DNA from: a virus
Virus record (IMG/VR): IMGVR_UViG_3300032286_000077
Location: 1 to 32,641 of that record
DNA: 32,641 nt
Reading direction: 5' to 3' (one strand)
The notes under the pieces are model-generated. The model saw nothing but the letters and a program-made list of their open reading frames with translations, did not search any database and was not told where the DNA came from. This document shows, piece by piece, positions 12,681-32,641 of the stretch; position 1 is the stretch's first letter, and each line of letters starts with the position of its first letter. The position numbers were made by a program, and so were the translations under genes.

Positions 12681-13598
12681 TTAAACACTAGGCCAATTGC
12701 CATCCTGCACACTCCAAGGCCCGACAAGCTGATTCATGCCAACAGGGGCAAGTGACATTGCTGAGACCGGTACATCCTGCGCTTTGCAATAAGAAAGCGA
12801 TCTTGTGAATTCACCCAACTCAACGGTGAAATCAAGTTTCTTGGCTTTTAAGAAGTAAAACTTTAATCCAGCCAGCATCAGGTCATCAGGGAAAATTGAT
12901 GTGTCTGTGTCCGCTGTATATGTTGACTTTGAGCCTTGATCTGAGCCAGCCGCGCAAATCCAGTAGTTAGAAACATACTCAAAAGAAAAGTTATAAACCG
13001 TTGTTAGCGCTTGGAAAATTCTAAATTTGTTGTTGTATATCCGGTAGCGCTCGCGTGGGCCAATAGAGATAATGCCGCCCTGCAAGAATTGCCAATCCTG
13101 AGATGACTTAGTTCCAAGGTTGCGCCAATGGTCTGTCCTGTCCCAATTGGTGTCCGAAATCATCCGGTCGTAGCCATCGGGCAAGTCATAGTCCTGCTTG
13201 GCAAACGTCATTGAAACTGATGCCGTTGAGGTGGTAACGGGCGTGTTTAGTGTTACCTGTGTGGAGCTATCAATGGTCAAAATTTCAGCATAAGGCGCTT
13301 GCCCTGTGCCTGTAATTACGTTGCCAACTTGCAAAGCCGCTGTGCTTGGTATGTTAGTGATTACTTTAGAGTTTGCCGTTATGTTGCCTGTTGTGCTTAC
13401 AGCGGTTTGGGTCTGCCAAATATACGCTTGCACCAAACGCTGCCATTCAAAGTCCCTGACCAAATCCCTGCCTAGCCGGTTAGCTAAAGCAAGAATTTGG
13501 ATGGTCTGATTGTTAGATGAGCCAATTACTGACGGTGGCTGAGTTAAGCCCAGCTCTGCGGACATTTGATCAACCAGCTGCAGTAATGTGTAGCTCAT
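12681..13598 (-). CDS. Tail tubular protein A-like (T7 gp11-like adaptor/gatekeeper)
   Basis: The N-terminus LLQLVDQMSAELGLTQPPSVIGSSNNQTIQILALANRLGRDLVRDFEWQRL follows the gp11 N-terminal pattern (L..V...LG.PP...GS.....Q.L.L.N.....L....W). The position also fits. Confidence 0.6.
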   Translation of the reverse strand: MSYTLLQLVDQMSAELGLTQPPSVIGSSNNQTIQILALANRLGRDLVRDFEWQRLVQAYIWQTQTAVSTTGNITANSKVITNIPSTAALQVGNVITGTGQAPYAEILTIDSSTQVTLNTPVTTSTASVSMTFAKQDYDLPDGYDRMISDTNWDRTDHWRNLGTKSSQDWQFLQGGIISIGPRERYRIYNNKFRIFQALTTVYNFSFEYVSNYWICAAGSDQGSKSTYTADTDTSIFPDDLMLAGLKFYFLKAKKLDFTVELGEFTRSLSYCKAQDVPVSAMSLAPVGMNQLVGPWSVQDGNWPSV

Positions 13599-13599
13599 A

Positions 13600-14178
13600 T
13601 CATTCCTCTACGGTTTCTTTTTTAGGTCTTCCGGCTTTTTTGTTGATCATCGCACGAAGCTCGGCCAATTCAGCCTCTTGAGCTTCCATTTTTTTATCCA
13701 TCTCAGCGCGAATCTTGTCCATCATTTGCGAATCTTGCGCCACCATGATGAAAGCCCGAGCCTTTGATCTCAAATCGTTAAAACCCATGATCTTGTCGCC
13801 AGCCACATCAGGCAAATTAGCAAACTGGTCAATGGTGAAAATGTTAAGCGCTTTGAACTCTGCTTTTTGTGTTTCTGAAATTGCCATCCATGCGTCTATG
13901 GGTGTGCCAGCTACTTTTTGTTCTTTCTTTTGCTCGTATCTTGCCCACTCAATGGGGTAATCTTCCATGTCTTGCTCGCGCATGGGGCGATCAACAACCA
14001 AGGTCGAGTCGCCTGGCACTAACTTCTTGATAAAGATGCGCTCTTCAAAGATTGGGCGCTTTTCTGCGTCTGATTTAAAGTTATTACGCACCTGTACAGC
14101 ATGAAAAAACACCGCCATCTTGCCACGGTTGTCTTCCATAAAGCTCTCGTTTGTCCAGCCTGCCACTTCGTTTTTCAT
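13600..14178 (-). CDS. Hypothetical structural-module protein (192 aa)
   Basis: It is a long ORF whose ATG overlaps the upstream stop (ATGA). It has a coiled-coil C-terminus, and I recognised no family. Confidence 0.75.
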   Translation of the reverse strand: MKNEVAGWTNESFMEDNRGKMAVFFHAVQVRNNFKSDAEKRPIFEERIFIKKLVPGDSTLVVDRPMREQDMEDYPIEWARYEQKKEQKVAGTPIDAWMAISETQKAEFKALNIFTIDQFANLPDVAGDKIMGFNDLRSKARAFIMVAQDSQMMDKIRAEMDKKMEAQEAELAELRAMINKKAGRPKKETVEE

Positions 14179-14912
14179 GTTAATTCCTTGAGTTTGAAAG
14201 CAGTTTCCTGCATAAGACCATCGCCGTAAAACACCACTTCAGCATCCTGCGTTTCTATGAATTTTTCCATTTCAATCGCCGCTTGGAGCATCTGCTGTGT
14301 TGTTTGGAAAGTTCTCAAACCAACTCTGACCATGATTTTAATCTGATCTTTGCCAGTATGAGCACCCGCGTGGCGGTTATTTGTATATGAACAATCCATG
14401 CCATGAATGTCAAACCGGCGAAACCCTAAAGCCGCCGAAACATTCATTGCCCTCATGCCTACACTAGAACCGCCACCAATCAGGCTTTCCATGCCCTCGG
14501 GGTGGTGCTGGGCTACCCATGCCACCGTCTCGAAATCATCTCCATTTACCAAATGCCATACCTTAACATTTTTCCCTTTAAGAATCTCCCAAAAGTTTGG
14601 GTGGCAAACCGAGGCCATCAGGTACTTAGTGGCTTTCTGTGGCTTTCTTAACATTTCAGCCTTGTGCGGTCTTGGATCGCAGTCCACATGAAAGTCAGGA
14701 ATAACACCCCTCTCCACCAAGTAATCATGCGCCCCTGAGACGGTCATTATTGGGTGTTTGAGCTGCTTCCAAGTATCTGCAAGGCTTGGCCCATAACAAG
14801 CAATGGTCATGCGCCGGTCGTTGAATTTGCCCTTTTTCTTGAGCAGGGGCAAATGAATTGACTTTGCCATCTGCTCATGGCGCTCGGCGTTACTCAAGAC
14901 CCCTTTAAGCAT
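14175..14912 (-). CDS. DUF115 (MptE/Maf-like) putative glycosyltransferase, stand-alone copy
   Basis: The motifs are CYGPSL ... SGAHDYLVERGVIPDFHVDCDP ... LIGGGSSVGMRAMNVSAALGFRRFDIHGMDCSY. It is a paralogue of the N-terminal half of the 15340-16971 protein. Confidence 0.75.
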   Translation of the reverse strand: MLKGVLSNAERHEQMAKSIHLPLLKKKGKFNDRRMTIACYGPSLADTWKQLKHPIMTVSGAHDYLVERGVIPDFHVDCDPRPHKAEMLRKPQKATKYLMASVCHPNFWEILKGKNVKVWHLVNGDDFETVAWVAQHHPEGMESLIGGGSSVGMRAMNVSAALGFRRFDIHGMDCSYTNNRHAGAHTGKDQIKIMVRVGLRTFQTTQQMLQAAIEMEKFIETQDAEVVFYGDGLMQETAFKLKELT

Positions 14913-15496
14913 TCCACCCTCATATCTCTAAATGGGAAATGGTAGCGAGGCTCGCAAAACGTAATGTTCTGCATTCCTACGGTTTCCAGCATATCTTTCA
15001 ATGGGCGTTGAAACCAGCCCCAATGGTGGCACATGGCCTCAGATTTATATTTGGGGTCACCATACAACGCATTTAGCGTCATAAAGGGCTGTAAAGGCTC
15101 TTTGTTGACCACGCAATTATGGACATAGGCAAACACCTTATCCATGCAGGGAAGCTCTAGGATCATCTTGCCGCCAGGCTTTAGCACCCGCTTCCACTCG
15201 CTCAGTAAGTCATAAACTTCCCACTCGTAAAAGTGTTCTAGAACGTGAATTGCCGCTACAGCATCAGCAGAATCGCTTGCTATCTCTAGTTTTCTTAGGT
15301 CGCATTTGATGTCAGAAATGTCAGAATGCAAATCGACATTTATCCAACCGTCCCATTTCTTTGATCCGCATCCAAGGTTGTAGGCCGTCTCGTAGCGCTC
15401 TTCCACTTGTCGATCAGTATTTGAGGCGAGAATTCTTCCCTCACGAACCTCTGCGCCTTGGAAATGAGTTCGTTCATGTTCTGCTGTTTTGTCCAT
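14894..15496 (-). CDS. Class I SAM-dependent methyltransferase
   Basis: It carries motif I NLGCGSKK, then DAVAAIHVLEHF and VLKPGGKMILELP. The ATG at 15496 has GAGGG 6 nt upstream but overlaps the upstream gene by 157 nt. The alternative GTG at 15406 overlaps by 67 nt. Confidence 0.75.
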   Translation of the reverse strand: MDKTAEHERTHFQGAEVREGRILASNTDRQVEERYETAYNLGCGSKKWDGWINVDLHSDISDIKCDLRKLEIASDSADAVAAIHVLEHFYEWEVYDLLSEWKRVLKPGGKMILELPCMDKVFAYVHNCVVNKEPLQPFMTLNALYGDPKYKSEAMCHHWGWFQRPLKDMLETVGMQNITFCEPRYHFPFRDMRVECLKGS

Positions 15497-16971
15497 TCGA
15501 TGCCCTCTTTGATGTTGCCGATATAAATGGGAAAATCTTTCAAGGCTGGGTGCGGCTCTGCAACCACAAAACAACCCTGTCTAATCGCCTCAATTGCCCT
15601 GTTTGCGCTTTTGTAAGAAGCAGTGGTAGGGATCACCACTATATCGGCTCGGGCAAATTCTTCCAACATGGTTTCTTTCGACCAAGGAATCGCCCCCTCA
15701 AAGTTTGACACCACCCGCAAGGGATAACCCTCAAGGTCAGGCAGTATGCGCTGCAAGCTATCACGGTTGACGTGATGCCCAAACCACAGCAAATTTGTCC
15801 CAGCGTAATGCGGTGGCATCTCGGGAAACTCATAAGGGTCGGCAATGACAGTTGCATCCCGCCCCAACTCTTTAATTCTTTTAGCCATCTCGGTGGTTGA
15901 GCAAGTCACCGCATCAGCCAGCCGCAGCGCCTCTTGGTAGTGCAACCAATCAAAATGGTCATCACAAAAGTCCACCACCACCCAAGCGCCTCGGGCTTTA
16001 GCTCTTGCCATATCCATCAGCTCACTGGCTTGCGGTTTGGCAAATATCAACGTGTCGGCAGTCAGGTCGTTTAAGGTTGCCCAATCCCCTGACGGTATTT
16101 TTGCCCGATAGCGCCAGCTCGCCGCATTCTTGTCGCCCCAATGGATAAATGAGGTGCGGTCGTTAAGGTTTGCCTTAACATTGATGATGTCACCCAACTC
16201 CATCATGTTCTGTTCACGCTTTTTAATGATGGCTTGGATCAACCCATGCCCATGCCCATTAAATGTGGCATCAGGCAAATAATCGTAATAGGTTTGGAAG
16301 TGCTCGGCCTGCAACGCCATTGCTGTATTGCAATAAAAGGTCTCGCCCTGTGGGTCAATCTTGACCTCAATCAGCTTGTCGCCCTCTTTTAGCCCCTCGC
16401 CGTTTACCCTAAGTAAATCGCCGTCATTGCAAGAGTCAAACCCAAACAGCTCAAACTGGCGGTAGCCAAGAACGTAAAACAGCGATATAGCCCTTAATCC
16501 TGAGGTTGTACCCCCACCTATCAACATACAGTTTTTAGGGCGGTCTTGCCCTTTTTTAACGTATGGATGCCATAGCGTGACCTGACACCCATCAAGGTTG
16601 TCAAACATCGCTGGATGGCATTGGCTGGCAATCATGTAATGCACAGTCGGCTGCGGTTTGTAAAACGCTATCCTGTGCTCTTGCGGGTCGATGGCTAATG
16701 CGTAATCAGGCATAACGCCGTTATCAATTAACCAATCATGTGCGCCCTTAATTGCCACAATAGGCGACCCTGCCGCTTTCATCTTTTTAATAAGCTCTAA
16801 CTGACCTTTAACGCTTGGTGCGCTTGCCACCAACAAGATCGCGCCGGTCTTTATTTCCTGCGCTTGTCTGACCTGTGGGTAACCTCTAGCAACCGCCGCA
16901 TCCATGTTGGCAAACAATGTCTCATCTTCTGCGACACACTTACCGGTAATTTTTAAAGGCAAAGAACTCAT
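15340..16971 (-). CDS. Two-domain putative glycosyltransferase: N-terminal DUF115 (Maf-like) plus a C-terminal GT-B-like domain
   Basis: The N-terminal half has VASAPSV ... KGAHDWLIDNGVMPDYALAIDP ... LIGGGTTSGLRAISLFYVLGYRQFELFGFDS. The C-terminal half has ADIVVIPTTASYKSANRAIEAIRQGCFVVAEPHP, which resembles the nucleotide-sugar-binding half of GT-B enzymes. Confidence 0.75.
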   Translation of the reverse strand: MSSLPLKITGKCVAEDETLFANMDAAVARGYPQVRQAQEIKTGAILLVASAPSVKGQLELIKKMKAAGSPIVAIKGAHDWLIDNGVMPDYALAIDPQEHRIAFYKPQPTVHYMIASQCHPAMFDNLDGCQVTLWHPYVKKGQDRPKNCMLIGGGTTSGLRAISLFYVLGYRQFELFGFDSCNDGDLLRVNGEGLKEGDKLIEVKIDPQGETFYCNTAMALQAEHFQTYYDYLPDATFNGHGHGLIQAIIKKREQNMMELGDIINVKANLNDRTSFIHWGDKNAASWRYRAKIPSGDWATLNDLTADTLIFAKPQASELMDMARAKARGAWVVVDFCDDHFDWLHYQEALRLADAVTCSTTEMAKRIKELGRDATVIADPYEFPEMPPHYAGTNLLWFGHHVNRDSLQRILPDLEGYPLRVVSNFEGAIPWSKETMLEEFARADIVVIPTTASYKSANRAIEAIRQGCFVVAEPHPALKDFPIYIGNIKEGIEWTKQQNMNELISKAQRFVREEFSPQILIDKWKSATRRPTTLDADQRNGTVG

Positions 16972-17001
16972 TAAAAAGACACCCCACCTTTTGAGTGGGG
17001 C
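16972..17001 (-). terminator. Hairpin plus T-tract after the capsid/accessory genes (partial intrinsic terminator and/or SD-occluding structure)
   Basis: The minus strand reads CCCCAC-TCAAAAG-GTGGGG-TGTC-TTTTT-A and then ATG at 16971. The stem is 6 bp, and its 3' arm is also the only SD-like sequence for the next gene. Confidence 0.5.
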
Positions 17002-17012
17002 ATCGTTTCTGA

Positions 17013-17546
17013 TTAGCCTGCGCCAACCATGATCAAGCCTGCATTGTTGACCATACAGAATGGTGCTGATGCAGAAGTAGCGGATGTGTTAGCCACAATA
17101 CCTTGGATGAAGCCAGCAGACACAGTTGTGTCGTCCAACGAACCAGCGGTAGAAGTGGTGTACAAAGGCACTTTAGGATTGCATCCAACCAACAAGTTGA
17201 CCTTGAGCATACCGTTCAAGCCAACCCAGCCGTAGTAGCTAGAGGCAATTGCGGTTTGTGCAAAACCAACCATGTTGAAACCCAAAGCCGCAGCGTTTGT
17301 GGTGGTCACAGGCACAGCTCGCATAACAGGAGTGGAACTTGCTGAGTCTGCGTAACTGGACATGATCACAGCATCAAATGCGTTGATTGTGGATTCGGCG
17401 CGAACAAAAATGTAAACGCCGTTGTTGGATGTTCCTACCCGTGTGCCAGGTGTAACTGGAAACAATGTTGTAGAGCCTGCACTTGTTGACGCATAAGTAG
17501 CCGTCAAGTCAATGCCGATTTTGCCGTCTGTGACGTAATCTGCCAT
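17013..17546 (-). CDS. Ser/Thr-rich capsid-accessory (decoration-like) protein
   Basis: It lies 12 nt downstream of the major capsid gene and has its own GGAG. By my count 40 of 177 residues are Ser or Thr, clustered in runs such as TATYASTSAGSTT, SSYADSASSTP, TTSTAGS and NTSATSAS. Confidence 0.5.
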   Translation of the reverse strand: MADYVTDGKIGIDLTATYASTSAGSTTLFPVTPGTRVGTSNNGVYIFVRAESTINAFDAVIMSSYADSASSTPVMRAVPVTTTNAAALGFNMVGFAQTAIASSYYGWVGLNGMLKVNLLVGCNPKVPLYTTSTAGSLDDTTVSAGFIQGIVANTSATSASAPFCMVNNAGLIMVGAG

Positions 17547-17558
17547 GATATTTGCTCC

Positions 17559-18539
17559 TTATTCAGTCATCACGCCTTGGAACTGGAGTCCCGAGGCAGT
17601 CATATTGCCAGCCCAGCCGATCAAGCGCACGATGGCATCTTGGTTGGTGGACATACGCTCATCACCAATCGGAACGAAGTTACGATTTGCATGAGGACGG
17701 AAGAAAATGTATTTCGTGTTCAAGAAATAACCAGTAGATGTCGGGATGTTGCCGCCGATACCACCGTCAAGAACAACGTCTGCATTCATGTACTTGGAAG
17801 CAACAAAGCCTAATTCGGCCATTTTGCTAGATCCTGGGAAACGCTGAATGTTTTGCAGAGACGACATAAAGAAGCCCCACAAGTTGTTATCCAACAAAAT
17901 CAAATCGACTACGTCAGAGCCGCGACTTGTCTTTGCATACAGGCGGTTAAAACCGGTCTGAATGTTTGAGCTGGAAGCAGAAGCACCCAAGTCAGAAGTG
18001 AAGTCAAAAGTCTGATTACGCCAAAATGACCATGTTTGACGATCAATACCGCCAACCACACCAGTGCCAGGCGATGCGACCACCATAGCTTGCAAACCAG
18101 TGATTTGCTTGCCGTTGTTGGCTGTACCGTCAGAGTAGATACCAGTAGAGATCAAGTTTTCAATCGATGCCTCGGCAACGTCCAAACGTGCGTCAAACAA
18201 ATCGATGATCTGTTCTTCGCCGCTGTTTTGGAGCATTTCCAAGCCATTGATGGTAACTGCCACCGCTGCTTGTTTGATAGGGAACTGAGCCGCAGAGATT
18301 ACGTCCGCAGGGCTGATGTCTAAGACTTCAGCGCCCGAGTAGTACATAGCGGTTGAGTTTGCTTGGAATGACAATTCTTGCAGAATGGTCGAACCACCTG
18401 TGAAAGGCTTGTAACGGCCTTTCTCACGCAGGCGAGTCAGCAACGCATTGTTTTTGGTCACGTTATCAGCAACGATGCCGGAACGTGACTCAATGGTGGT
18501 TGCTAAAACGTCTGAGTAATTACTATTGGCGTATGCCAT
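17559..18539 (-). CDS. Major capsid protein (HK97-fold type)
   Basis: The 326-aa gene directly follows the scaffold gene. The N-terminal region LLTRLREKGRYKPFTGGSTILQEL ... VAVTINGLEMLQNSG resembles podovirus coat proteins. Confidence 0.85.
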   Translation of the reverse strand: MAYANSNYSDVLATTIESRSGIVADNVTKNNALLTRLREKGRYKPFTGGSTILQELSFQANSTAMYYSGAEVLDISPADVISAAQFPIKQAAVAVTINGLEMLQNSGEEQIIDLFDARLDVAEASIENLISTGIYSDGTANNGKQITGLQAMVVASPGTGVVGGIDRQTWSFWRNQTFDFTSDLGASASSSNIQTGFNRLYAKTSRGSDVVDLILLDNNLWGFFMSSLQNIQRFPGSSKMAELGFVASKYMNADVVLDGGIGGNIPTSTGYFLNTKYIFFRPHANRNFVPIGDERMSTNQDAIVRLIGWAGNMTASGLQFQGVMTE

Positions 18540-20389: not shown

Positions 20390-21430
20390 TTATGCCCCCC
20401 ACTTAGCTGCTAGTCCATCCGCGTAAGTCTTGTTAACAATGTCTGTGCTTGCGCTTGGCGCTGTGCTGATCGTGCCTGTGGTCAGAGCCACCGATGTGAT
20501 TGAGCCGCCAAGGGTTAAGTTTCCTGTGCTGGTGACTGTGCCTGTCAAGGTCAAGCCGTTAACTGTTCCTGTACCGCCGACTGAGGTAACTGTTCCCACG
20601 CTTGCTGAGCCGCCCAACGATGTGGCAACGCCATTTATTGTGATTGAGGAGTAAGTTAAGGCGCTGTTTGGTATTGATGTTAAGCCTGAGCCTGACCCCG
20701 AAAATGACGTAGCCGTAATTGTTGTGCCTGTAATGGCTTTGGGCGTAATCCCGCCAATTACCAAGTTATCCAATGTGCCTGTATTGGTAGGCGCTATCTC
20801 AACCGATCCTGCCCCTGTGGGCTTCATGTGGACGTGGCCTGTCCCTGTGGGGCTTATATCGACTTGGGCATTTGAGCCGTTAATGTTGGTTGAGACATTT
20901 AGCGTCAAGTTATCGCCACCGCCTGCACCCATGCTTAACTGCGTTGTACCTGATGCGTTTTTAAGGGATAACCCTGCCGAATTAGTGGCCTGAACTGTTG
21001 GAGTAGATAGGCTTGTGAGGGTAGCCGTTCCACCTGTAATCGTCACCGAATTGGCGTTTTGGGTAGACATTGTTCCCAAGCCGCTAATGTCAGTATTGCT
21101 TAACGTGACCTCGCCAACCTTGCCAGCCACCGAAATAACTGTTTTACCAGCAGGCAAGGTAACAAACACATCTTTTGTGCCTGCCGTCAATAAAAGCTTA
21201 GACCCGCCGTTAGATGAGCTTAAAACAGTATCTCGGCTTAACGTATTGGAAAGATACGTCCCAATCCCTACTTCCCATTCGGTAGTGCCTTGAATCGTGT
21301 AATAAGTTGTATTGTTGTTGCCAACCGCTGTAAATGCTTGAAAACCAGCCACCGCGCCATCAAGCGATAACGTACCTGTTCCTGTCGTGGTGGTGGTTTC
21401 CCTAACCCTGTCCGCTATGACAAAGCTCAT
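20390..21430 (-). CDS. Fiber-like protein rich in Thr, Gly and Ser (head fiber or second tail fiber)
   Basis: The N-terminus IADRVRETTTTTGTGTLSLDGAVAGFQAF ... WEVGIGTY is followed by reiterated beta-helix-like units (TLTGTVTSTGNLTLGGSITSV). The C-terminus has IVNKTYADGL. Confidence 0.6.
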   Translation of the reverse strand: MSFVIADRVRETTTTTGTGTLSLDGAVAGFQAFTAVGNNNTTYYTIQGTTEWEVGIGTYLSNTLSRDTVLSSSNGGSKLLLTAGTKDVFVTLPAGKTVISVAGKVGEVTLSNTDISGLGTMSTQNANSVTITGGTATLTSLSTPTVQATNSAGLSLKNASGTTQLSMGAGGGDNLTLNVSTNINGSNAQVDISPTGTGHVHMKPTGAGSVEIAPTNTGTLDNLVIGGITPKAITGTTITATSFSGSGSGLTSIPNSALTYSSITINGVATSLGGSASVGTVTSVGGTGTVNGLTLTGTVTSTGNLTLGGSITSVALTTGTISTAPSASTDIVNKTYADGLAAKWGA

Positions 21431-26858: not shown

Positions 26859-27539
26859 TTATCCATCAACTGTCTCCCGCATTTTAATTAAGCCGTTAAG
26901 CATCCTACTCTTGGTGTTAAACCATTGCTTGCTGAAGTCGCAGTTTTGGTAATGGTCAAACTCAGGGATACCTAGCGTGTAATGAGCAATCTTGGCGTTC
27001 TTGTTCTCTTGCTCGCCAACCAGTACGTTCCATTCTTTCGGTAATTCACCGATAAGCGAATCAGGCAACCAACCGAATCGGTGAAGCTCTGAGCCTGTAT
27101 GGTCATCCACAAATTCGGGCGTTAAAACCCTGTTTCTTAAGTGATCGCAATTCCAAAGTATTAAACTTGACCAGTTCTTTCGGGGATAGTCCCGATTCGC
27201 CGATTCCATAGGTGTACCGATATATTTCTTTGGGTGCTTGGTCTGATACTCATGCTTAACAACTTGCACCGCCTTGGTCGGGTCAAACAACTTGCTTAAG
27301 TCATCTATGTTTGCCAGCATCAGCATATCGCTGGCATCCATAAATATCGCTCTGCCTGTAAAGTTGGTGAAGTAAGGTACAAGAAACCGCTGATAGGTGA
27401 ATGCGTTTGTACCGTCCCGCTGTGTGCCGTACAAAGGCGTTATAGCTACTGGCTCGCTGGTGCGCTCAATCAGGCTTTGGCAAAACACATGGTAGCCAAC
27501 AGCCTCTCGAGGGTCATAGCCAGCGAATATCCTGATCAT
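26859..27539 (-). CDS. GT8-like (GT-A fold) glycosyltransferase
   Basis: The N-terminus IFAGYDPREAVGYHVFCQSL is followed by the DxD-like FMDASDM and then NWSSLILWNC and AHYTLGIPEF. These parallel the GT8 motifs (LDxD, FNxGVxxxN, HxxGxxKPW). Confidence 0.6.
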   Translation of the reverse strand: MIRIFAGYDPREAVGYHVFCQSLIERTSEPVAITPLYGTQRDGTNAFTYQRFLVPYFTNFTGRAIFMDASDMLMLANIDDLSKLFDPTKAVQVVKHEYQTKHPKKYIGTPMESANRDYPRKNWSSLILWNCDHLRNRVLTPEFVDDHTGSELHRFGWLPDSLIGELPKEWNVLVGEQENKNAKIAHYTLGIPEFDHYQNCDFSKQWFNTKSRMLNGLIKMRETVDG

Positions 27540-32247: not shown

Positions 32248-32641
32248 TGGAACAACGTACAGAAGAATGGTTTGCCGCTAGGTGTGGCAAGGTGACCGCA
32301 AGCCGCGTAGCAGACATCATTGCCAAAACCAAGACAGGGCCAAGCGCCAGCCGCGAGAATTACCTTGCCCAATTGGTCTGCGAAAGGTTAACAGGCAAAC
32401 CTGCCGAGTCCTACAGCAACGCAGCAATGGCTTGGGGAACGGATACTGAGCCTTTTGCTCGCGCCGCTTATGAGGCAAGGATGGACATCTTAGTAACAGA
32501 GGTGGGGTTTATCGACCACCCTTGGATCACCATGTCGGGTGCGTCACCGGACGGCTTGGCCTCCGAGGGTATGGTTGAGATCAAATGCCCCAATACCGCA
32601 ACCCACTTGCAAACCCTGTTAGACCGCAAAGTTCCTGAGAA
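32247..32641 (+). CDS. YqaJ-like recombination exonuclease, 5' part (runs off the window and continues at 124..334)
   Basis: The ATG at 32247 overlaps the upstream TAA (TAATG). My hand translation is MEQRTEEWFAARCGKVTASRVADIIAKTK..., the typical YqaJ N-terminus (W...R.G..TAS). It is in frame with 14..334 via the repeat. Confidence 0.85.
   Translation, partial: MEQRTEEWFAARCGKVTASRVADIIAKTKTGPSASRENYLAQLVCERLTGKPAESYSNAAMAWGTDTEPFARAAYEARMDILVTEVGFIDHPWITMSGASPDGLASEGMVEIKCPNTATHLQTLLDRKVPE
32519..32641. repeat. Terminal direct repeat, exact copy of 1-123
   Basis: See the 1-123 feature. The repeat falls inside a coding sequence. Confidence 0.95.

Follow-up and report, generated by a model that had tools for sequence, protein, structure and literature searches.

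A Maf/DUF115 glycosyltransferase and methyltransferase cassette behind the capsid genes of a podophage: a candidate virion O-glycosylation system

The enzyme cassette and its setting

The virus record IMGVR_UViG_3300032286_000077, analyzed here over its entire length of 32,641 nucleotides (nt; the window), carries between its capsid genes and its head-tail adaptor gene a cassette of three enzyme genes that may serve to O-glycosylate the phage's own particle. The cassette encodes a 543-amino-acid (aa) protein in which a Maf/DUF115 domain is fused to a GT-B glycosyltransferase domain (15340-16971), a 170-aa class I S-adenosylmethionine (SAM)-dependent methyltransferase (14894-15406), and a stand-alone 245-aa Maf/DUF115 paralogue (14175-14912). 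As a preliminary description of this DNA had stated, all three genes lie on one strand, here the minus strand, between the capsid and tail genes with overlapping stops and starts: the 543-aa gene overlaps the methyltransferase gene by 67 nt, the methyltransferase gene overlaps the 245-aa gene by 19 nt, and the 245-aa gene overlaps the next gene by 4 nt. Together with a GT8-like gene elsewhere in the genome, glycosyl and methyl transfer account for 10.7% of the sequence, in agreement with the earlier estimate of about a tenth. We consider it very probable that the cassette encodes glycan-building enzymes. Its best-supported reading is a system for virion O-glycosylation, and we put the chance that the target is a virion protein at about even.

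The window ends in an exact 123-nt direct repeat (1-123 and 32519-32641), and we therefore take it to be a complete, circularly assembled genome of ~32.5 kb. Upstream of the cassette in the direction of transcription lie the major capsid gene (17559-18539, minus strand; PHROG 9953, E value (E) 1.7e-104) and, directly after it, a gene that we call g177 (17013-17546, minus strand), whose 177-aa product contains 23% Ser+Thr and matches PHROG 29386 ('virion structural protein', E 1.6e-4). Downstream are a conserved 192-aa protein (13600-14178, minus strand) and the head-tail adaptor (12681-13598, minus strand; a weak SU10_adaptor match); this flank, 12681-14178, matches PHROG 20268 and PHROG 6013, 'tail protein'. 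An intrinsic-terminator-like hairpin with an 11-bp stem, six G-C pairs and a T run (about 16973-17004, minus strand) sits between the stop codon of g177 and the ATG of the 543-aa gene and is the strongest such hairpin of the region. It may act as a partial terminator that reduces enzyme expression relative to that of the capsid proteins, a role that would fit strong capsid-protein expression followed by weaker read-through into the enzyme genes. Promoter-like sites are not in excess in the cassette region, and none of the cassette enzymes has membrane-like segments. The ratio of nonsynonymous to synonymous substitution rates against several relatives is 0.04-0.16 for the three cassette genes, in the same range as for the capsid and adaptor genes, and by this measure the enzymes are under strong purifying selection.

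The DUF115 domains resemble Maf proteins

The profile searches suggested in the preliminary description returned PF01973 twice and Methyltransf_11 above their cut-offs, and Glyco_trans_1_2 as a weak match. The N-terminal domain of the 543-aa protein (residues ~1-262; 16186-16971, minus strand) matches PF01973 (MptE-like) over residues 41-182 with E 9.9e-16 and 58.4 bits against a gathering cut-off of 34.6. The 245-aa protein, which had been called a second DUF115 protein on its motifs, matches the same family with E 6.3e-18 and 65.6 bits. That the two copies are paralogues is borne out by 31% identity over 192 aa (E 4e-26), and the motifs first quoted for both do align. The AlphaFold model of the 543-aa protein has two domains (predicted local distance difference test score (pLDDT) 93.3, predicted template modelling score 0.84). 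A comparison with solved Maf structures had been proposed, and the top PDB match of the predicted N-terminal domain in Foldseek is indeed the Maf protein of Magnetospirillum magneticum (5MU5; E 2.5e-7, 256 aligned columns). The core of 5MU5 is a modified GT-A, GT42-like fold, and the model predicts the same for the phage domain. Searches of the PDB with the single sequences of the 543-aa, 245-aa and GT8-like proteins gave nothing significant; matches came from profiles and folds alone.

Mutagenesis of the M. magneticum Maf protein has identified E324 and D415 as essential (bioRxiv 10.1101/2020.06.03.131540). In our alignment E324 corresponds to D95 of the 543-aa protein and D79 of the 245-aa protein, and D415 to D179 and D173, respectively. 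Asp is found in 39 of 41 aligned sequences in the first column and in 40 of 41 in the second.

PF01973 takes its name from MptE, the archaeal 6-hydroxymethyl-7,8-dihydropterin pyrophosphokinase, and the phage domains could in principle be pyrophosphokinases of this type or other small-molecule enzymes for cofactor or metabolite synthesis. The Methanocaldococcus jannaschii kinase (8SD5) has the same core fold and shares the conserved Asp residues, and it is matched both by the DUF115 subfamily profile (E 6.6e-7) and by the predicted structure (E 1.4e-4, target TM-score (template modelling score) 0.64). Maf is nevertheless the better match on both counts, with a profile E of 8e-11 for 5MU5 and the first rank among the folds. 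The genomic setting is not pterin-related: the family scans of the genome, which covered all open reading frames (ORFs) of about 130 aa or more, turned up no further folate or pterin gene. Moreover, the domain is fused to a GT-B domain here and, in relatives described below, to sugar-type methyltransferases or a sulfotransferase, and in one relative it adjoins a GT2 glycosyltransferase and a UDP-glucose (uridine diphosphate glucose) dehydrogenase. These fusions to glycan-type enzymes tell more about the chemistry than the conserved Asp residues do, and we regard an MptE-type function as highly improbable, the least probable of the readings weighed here.

A compact GT-B domain abuts the methyltransferase

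The C-terminal domain of the 543-aa protein (residues ~272-527; 15391-16158, minus strand) had been described as a GT-B-like half joined to DUF115. The fusion stands, but the domain is no half: in the AlphaFold model, where pLDDT exceeds 90 over residues 272-527, it forms a complete, compact GT-B fold with two Rossmann-like halves. Its Foldseek matches are SenB (target TM-score 0.62), TarM, SdgB, GtfC and PimA, with E from 5e-6 to 2e-4, so that the nearest structural analogues include two protein O-glycosyltransferases for Ser-rich substrates, SdgB and GtfC. In sequence, the window domain scores 18.5 bits for Glyco_trans_1_2 against a cut-off of 25, and among the 62 members of its family, 10 match Glyco_trans_1_4 (best E 1.5e-5) and 9 match Glyco_trans_1_2. 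No match among PDB sequences reached significance; a weak, non-significant one (E 0.23) is to 3QKW, which we take to be the Gtf3 enzyme of the serine-rich-repeat adhesin pathway. The GT-B domain also occurs on its own, at ~270 aa, in many genomes, and both halves of the 543-aa protein are widely found as stand-alone proteins.

The methyltransferase matches Methyltransf_11 with E 4.3e-10 and 40.5 bits (cut-off 21.2), and the motifs on which it had been assigned to class I, NLGCGSKK (motif I being LGCGSKK), VLEHF and LKPGG, are all present, which confirms that assignment. It also has a weak match to the NCBIfam oligosaccharide methyltransferase MftM (E 2.7e-7, 30 bits against a cut-off of 200). 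Its start codon is most likely the GTG at 15406, which gives 170 aa and which corresponds to an ATG in two related loci, L110 and L111 (L and P numbers are our handles for the loci of relatives). Gene callers miss or mis-call the methyltransferase in both of these. Two longer forms were rejected. An ORF of 226 aa beginning at a TTG was judged too long, and a start at the ATG at 15496, which would make a 157-nt overlap, was set aside in view of the ATG found at the GTG position in L110 and L111; the conservation of that ATG and of its 30-aa extension is accounted for by Glu-Trp codons and an FSPxxL motif that are conserved in the GT-B frame.

The GTG is embedded in the codon of the invariant Trp523, the residue that ends the GT-B domain. 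Past this residue, ~20 further and unconserved codons take the 543-aa ORF to the stop at 15340; they overlap the stretch that encodes the N-terminus and motif I of the methyltransferase, which is read in the -1 frame. In bacterial homologues the GT-B domain and the methyltransferase are usually a single in-frame polypeptide of 507-1964 aa, and the phage arrangement therefore looks like the fission of a fused gene. A programmed -1 frameshift joining the two was considered and rejected, as no slippery heptamer was seen by eye in the sequence.

A hypervariable interval after the capsid gene

The position of the cassette was surveyed with a profile of the capsid protein, using the best 80 of at least 580 IMG/VR relatives, which together with other related loci gave 67 informative loci; the downstream flank with the 192-aa and adaptor genes was used as anchor. 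The survey had been put forward in the preliminary description as a check on the cassette, and the complete cassette was found in the same position in relatives at 79-97% protein identity. Across the 67 loci, the interval that separates the capsid gene from the 192-aa gene measures anywhere between about 370 and 7,500 nt, and judged by its contents it is a hypervariable hotspot of gene turnover. Many relatives have only one small gene there, and Stenotrophomonas phage BUCT555 has its lysis genes in the interval between capsid and adaptor.

The DUF115 genes of these loci keep close company with the g177 family, and are confined to loci in which a member of that family comes immediately after the capsid gene. 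Both are present in 18 loci, g177 is present by itself in 17, neither is found in 32, and no locus has DUF115 only. The 18 loci represent eight lineages, and in each the DUF115 gene lies directly behind a member of the g177 family. With lineages collapsed, the co-occurrence is 8/8 against 17/49 (Fisher p = 6.5e-4, a value that ignores phylogeny and adjacency). The order capsid, g177, DUF115 recurs in three further lineages represented by genome bins (L008, L010 and L013). The partners of DUF115 vary: it is fused to Methyltransf_24 in L027, L076, P0163 and P0167, to Methyltransf_23/25 in L073, and to a sulfotransferase in L028.

The last of these belongs to a 7.5-kb island at the capsid-adaptor position of two marine contigs (L028:2885-9593 and L029), in which the sulfotransferase-DUF115 fusion stands beside a GT2 protein, a UDP-glucose/GDP-mannose (guanosine diphosphate mannose) dehydrogenase, a Methyltransf_14 fragment and several ORFs of no known family. 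This gene content suggests a glycan that is sulfated or contains uronic acid. In L063:4742-9520 and L106:8570-11071 the interval instead holds large Ser/Thr-rich proteins (591-833 aa, 22-29% Ser+Thr, no family match) that may be head fibres, and the hotspot is therefore not limited to enzymes. Finally, a comparison of L007:9428-10780 with window 16192-17546 shows flanks that are 98-100% identical around a tract in which g177 is 87% identical and the DUF115 domain of the 543-aa protein 70% identical. Such a tract would be consistent with local replacement or fast evolution, and its extent coincides precisely with the candidate acceptor plus the first transferase domain.

The GT8-like enzyme and a possible DNA target

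The GT8-like gene (26859-27539, minus strand) is distant from the cassette and immediately precedes the genes for the ParB-DNA methylase and the terminase. No Pfam family matches the window protein itself; among its homologues at 53-83% identity, 16 of 27 match PF01501 (Glyco_transf_8; best E 6e-7). The aspartates of its DxD motif, D68 and D71, are invariant in the family, and the family profile aligned the DxD region with the GT8 protein WbbM weakly, at E 0.19. The gene proposed earlier as GT8-like is real, and its product is a putative member of that family. In two divergent phages, L111 and L008, it is found inside the structural module beside the cassette, a placement that ties it to the cassette system, of which it is probably a further member.

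Because the GT8-like gene adjoins a ParB-N6 DNA methylase, we considered whether the glycosyltransferases and the methyltransferase might hypermodify the phage DNA and so evade restriction, like the systems that make glucosyl- or arabinosyl-hydroxymethylpyrimidines. One report describes virus-encoded glycosyltransferases that decorate DNA as diverse (bioRxiv 10.1101/2023.12.21.572611). In the present genome, however, no hydroxymethylase, TET/JBP-like enzyme or base-modification kinase was found among the scanned ORFs, those outside the scan all being under about 130 aa. The cassette itself lies in the structural and not the replication module, and the GT8-like and GT-B homologues occur in flagellar loci and phage structural modules. 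We also know of no DUF115 protein that acts on DNA. DNA as the target is very unlikely.

Cellular relatives and a possible host target

The cellular relatives of these enzymes are found near filament genes. The region between flagellin/FlaF and FlgE/FlgK in Dongia deserti contains adjacent homologues of the GT8-like protein and of the GT-B domain. The locus (L024:4871-12108) encodes a 737-aa flagellin, FlaF, the GT8-like protein, the compact GT-B homologue and a methyltransferase-kinase fusion, and is probably, by its gene content, a flagellin glycosylation island built from the phage's enzyme families. A 1487-aa TPR-rich protein of Methylophilus methylotrophus DSM 46235 (L012:7193-11656) ends in GT-B and methyltransferase domains, and the Tad/Flp-pilus locus that encodes it also codes for a prepilin peptidase, a secretin and a CpaE-like ATPase. 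This protein is a candidate pilin (or other filament) glycosyltransferase-methyltransferase, and no published description of it was found in the literature searched. The flagellin glycosyltransferase FlmG consists of a TPR domain and a GT-B domain (PMC7591256), and the M. methylotrophus protein resembles it in having TPRs followed by GT-B. By analogy, then, the cellular relatives point to glycosylation of protein, and of filaments in particular.

These same relatives raise the alternative that the phage enzymes modify a host structure, such as flagellin, Tad/Flp pilin, or an intermediate of lipopolysaccharide (LPS) or capsule. This could block superinfection, lessen the adsorption of progeny to debris, or alter the behaviour of the host. 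Flagellar and Tad-pilus loci contain homologues of the GT-B, GT8-like and methyltransferase proteins, flagellin is the substrate of Maf enzymes, and relatives of the GT8-like protein are labelled LPS glycosyltransferases by the Joint Genome Institute. Phage glycosyltransferases are known to alter host serotype (a review cited in PMC12619734). Several observations speak against a host target. The genes lie in a late head-tail operon with overlapping frames and without an excess of promoter-like sites, and DUF115 co-occurs with a family of phage structural proteins. There is no flippase, GtrA/B-like protein or membrane component, and the enzymes themselves lack membrane segments. In addition, a modification made late in the lytic cycle would have little time to reach the cell surface. 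Lysogenic conversion was rejected, as every ORF of integrase size in the complete genome is otherwise assigned. On balance, a host target appears unlikely, with perhaps one chance in five.

Candidate acceptors on the particle

If the target is on the particle, g177 is the best candidate for the glycan acceptor. The weak fold matches of its model include gp8.5, the base of the phi29 head fibre, and capsid-accessory chains of T1, HFTV1, Sf11, FCWL1, YSD1 and TW1. The best of these are consistently accessories of the capsid surface, and with a model pLDDT of 60 they are suggestive of, at low confidence, a protein that is probably a capsid decoration or head-fibre-base protein. A search of the literature on HFTV1 capsid glycosylation found nothing useful.

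A second protein rich in Ser and Thr (346 aa, 32% Ser+Thr) is encoded between portal and scaffold (20390-21430, minus strand). It has no family match, and its N-terminus is fibre-like and resembles that of the 583-aa tail fibre. Close relatives have either a 431-aa gene or three small genes in this slot. The 346-aa protein could be a head fibre and another acceptor.

A model for virion O-glycosylation

Five lines of evidence indirectly favour O-glycosylation of the virion: islands in the same position in related phages, the co-occurrence of DUF115 with g177, the flagellin and pilus homologues, the soluble nature of the enzymes, and a complete genome without an ORF of integrase size left for an integrase. 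We hypothesize that the cassette specifies soluble, cytoplasmic enzymes for protein O-glycosylation, produced together with the late structural proteins, whose target is the particle of the phage itself. Read-through of the hairpin behind the capsid gene and g177 would yield the enzymes at a level below that of the capsid proteins. The two Maf-type DUF115 domains would then use a host nucleotide sugar to attach a sugar to Ser/Thr residues of a virion protein exposed on the surface, preferably g177, with the capsid protein or the Ser/Thr-rich fibres as alternatives. The fused GT-B domain, and probably also the GT8-like enzyme, would lengthen the glycan from UDP sugars or other nucleoside diphosphate (NDP) sugars, and the methyltransferase would O-methylate one of the sugars. 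The phage might benefit through shielding, stability or adsorption. If the analogy with Maf holds, the donor could be an ulosonic acid activated with cytidine monophosphate (CMP), such as 3-deoxy-D-manno-oct-2-ulosonic acid (Kdo) or a nonulosonic acid. Any one particular sugar is far less certain than a virion protein as the target, and a nonulosonic-acid donor is proposed by analogy and is well short of probable; the complete phage genome has no sugar-nucleotide synthesis genes, including those for CMP-nonulosonic acid, and no flagellin genes.

Several observations weigh against virion O-glycosylation. Since the conserved acidic residues are common to the MptE kinase, they leave the transferase chemistry unproven. 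The NCBIfam model FlagModPseD (PseD) scores 18.5 bits against a cut-off of 670, and the phage DUF115 proteins do not have the flanking domains of classical Maf proteins. The model of g177 is poor, having been built on a shallow alignment, and its fold matches all fall short of E 1e-3. The family of g177 occurs without DUF115 in the 17 loci noted above, its link to DUF115 could reflect inheritance of adjacent blocks instead of function, and its Ser/Thr content, tried as a marker of DUF115, is the same with and without it. Because the cellular homologues point to flagellin and pilin, a host filament could equally be the target. Neither megablast of the region nor tblastn with the 543-aa and 245-aa proteins as queries found a cultured relative with the cassette in a set of 50,697 phage records. 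A genome scan with a 6-sequence alignment gave the single lead to a host, a copy of the 543-aa protein with 82% identity; the 33-kb contig that carries it was binned with a Burkholderiaceae metagenome-assembled genome. This lead is not a firm host link, and a supply of CMP-nonulosonic acids by the host is an assumption.

Taking the survey and the model together, we tentatively picture a large and mostly aquatic podophage family with a hypervariable capsid glyco-island, in which Maf/DUF115 enzymes and interchangeable methyl-, sulfo- and glycosyltransferases coat a decoration protein with acidic, methylated glycans. We think this possible, with the odds somewhat against it.

Comparison with known glycosylation systems

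A close parallel is with the Maf flagellin glycosyltransferases (5MU5 and the Mafs of G. kaustophilus and C. botulinum), with which the phage domains share the PF01973 core and predicted fold as well as both essential acidic positions. Maf proteins are likewise soluble and cytoplasmic, and flagellin islands also hold glycan-tailoring enzymes, methyltransferases among them. In contrast, Maf proteins are ~630 aa long with N- and C-terminal flanking domains, whereas the phage proteins correspond to the ~250-aa core, one copy is fused to GT-B, and the genes stand in a head-tail operon. Where a Maf locus would have flagellin and nonulosonic-acid synthesis genes, the phage has adjoining capsid genes. 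FlmG is similar by architecture, in that relatives of the phage GT-B domain end large TPR proteins in filament loci; it differs in that the phage has DUF115 where FlmG has TPRs, and in that the cellular relatives add a fused methyltransferase.

Virion glycosylation is established in chloroviruses. The major capsid protein of PBCV-1 carries a methylated glycan, the product of virus-encoded, host-independent cytoplasmic glycosyltransferases and a sugar methyltransferase, and the multidomain protein A064R combines two glycosyltransferase domains with a methyltransferase domain. PBCV-1 differs from the phage in its eukaryotic host, its atypical N-linked glycans and its unrelated enzyme families. 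Among phages, mycobacteriophages have been found to carry glycans on subunits of the capsid and the tail tube (Freeman et al. 2023, summarized in PMC12619734). The likeness lies in phage-encoded glycosyltransferases that decorate the phage's own capsid-associated proteins, shown there and proposed here from genes alone. By the same account the acceptors there are the C-termini of capsid and tail-tube subunits, whereas here we propose a separate decoration-like protein, and the enzymes here are Maf/DUF115, compact GT-B and GT8-like proteins of a podophage with a Gram-negative-type host.

The preliminary description had held that such enzymes are not standard in the structural module of a T7-order podovirus. 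Their position in the structural operon is indeed unusual, but the family is not absent from phages: UniProt/BFVD already contains several DUF115-family proteins of uncultured freshwater phages under the automatic annotation 'MptE-like', one with 72% identity. In the literature we found no paper describing Maf-type enzymes, MptE-like proteins or nonulosonic-acid virion glycosylation in phages, or connecting such enzymes with virions. If our reading is correct, the cassette would provide the first case of Maf-type protein glycosylation beyond flagella, widening Maf substrates from flagellins to viral proteins, and the first described virion glycosylation system for phages of Gram-negative bacteria, extending virion glycosylation beyond mycobacteriophages into abundant environmental phages. 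It would offer a testable reason for the gene-turnover hotspot after the capsid gene, with the variability of the island reflecting an arms race over the surface chemistry of the particle, and it would bear on phage stability, adsorption, and immune or predator recognition. It would also provide a compact soluble O-glycosylation toolkit (a ~250-aa Maf core, a ~270-aa GT-B domain and a 170-aa methyltransferase), maybe of use in glyco-engineering. Should a host filament prove to be the target, the cassette would be a new way for a phage to manipulate flagella or pili.

The phage genome

The phage was first taken, incorrectly, for a T7-order podovirus. The capsid protein is nearest to that of Stenotrophomonas phage BUCT555 (57% identity); with its counterparts in Bradyrhizobium phage ppBjS10J-1 and the Myxococcus phages Mx8 and Mx9 it shares 51-53% identity. 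The genome encodes Erf and an O-like replication protein, and no RNA or DNA polymerase family was matched among its scanned ORFs. By these relationships it is an Mx8/BUCT555-like podophage, and a small one from freshwater.

Nearly all genes lie on the minus strand, with Erf on the plus strand. In the order of transcription, an O-like/DUF1376 replication protein, an HNH endonuclease and a regulator precede the GT8-like gene, which is followed by the ParB-N6 DNA methylase, the small and large terminase subunits and the portal. The 346-aa Ser/Thr-rich protein, two small genes, the scaffold and the major capsid protein come next, and then g177, the three cassette genes, the 192-aa protein and the head-tail adaptor. 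The series ends with a 515-aa tail protein, three large internal proteins, the 583-aa fibre, an Rz-like spanin and an M15 endolysin. On the plus strand, a 221-aa protein (817-1482) matches PHROG 3704 (E 6.5e-74), which is labelled 'ferredoxin' and classed as a moron or auxiliary metabolic gene; the label looks doubtful, as the protein has no Pfam match. Close relatives of the phage are abundant in metagenomes.

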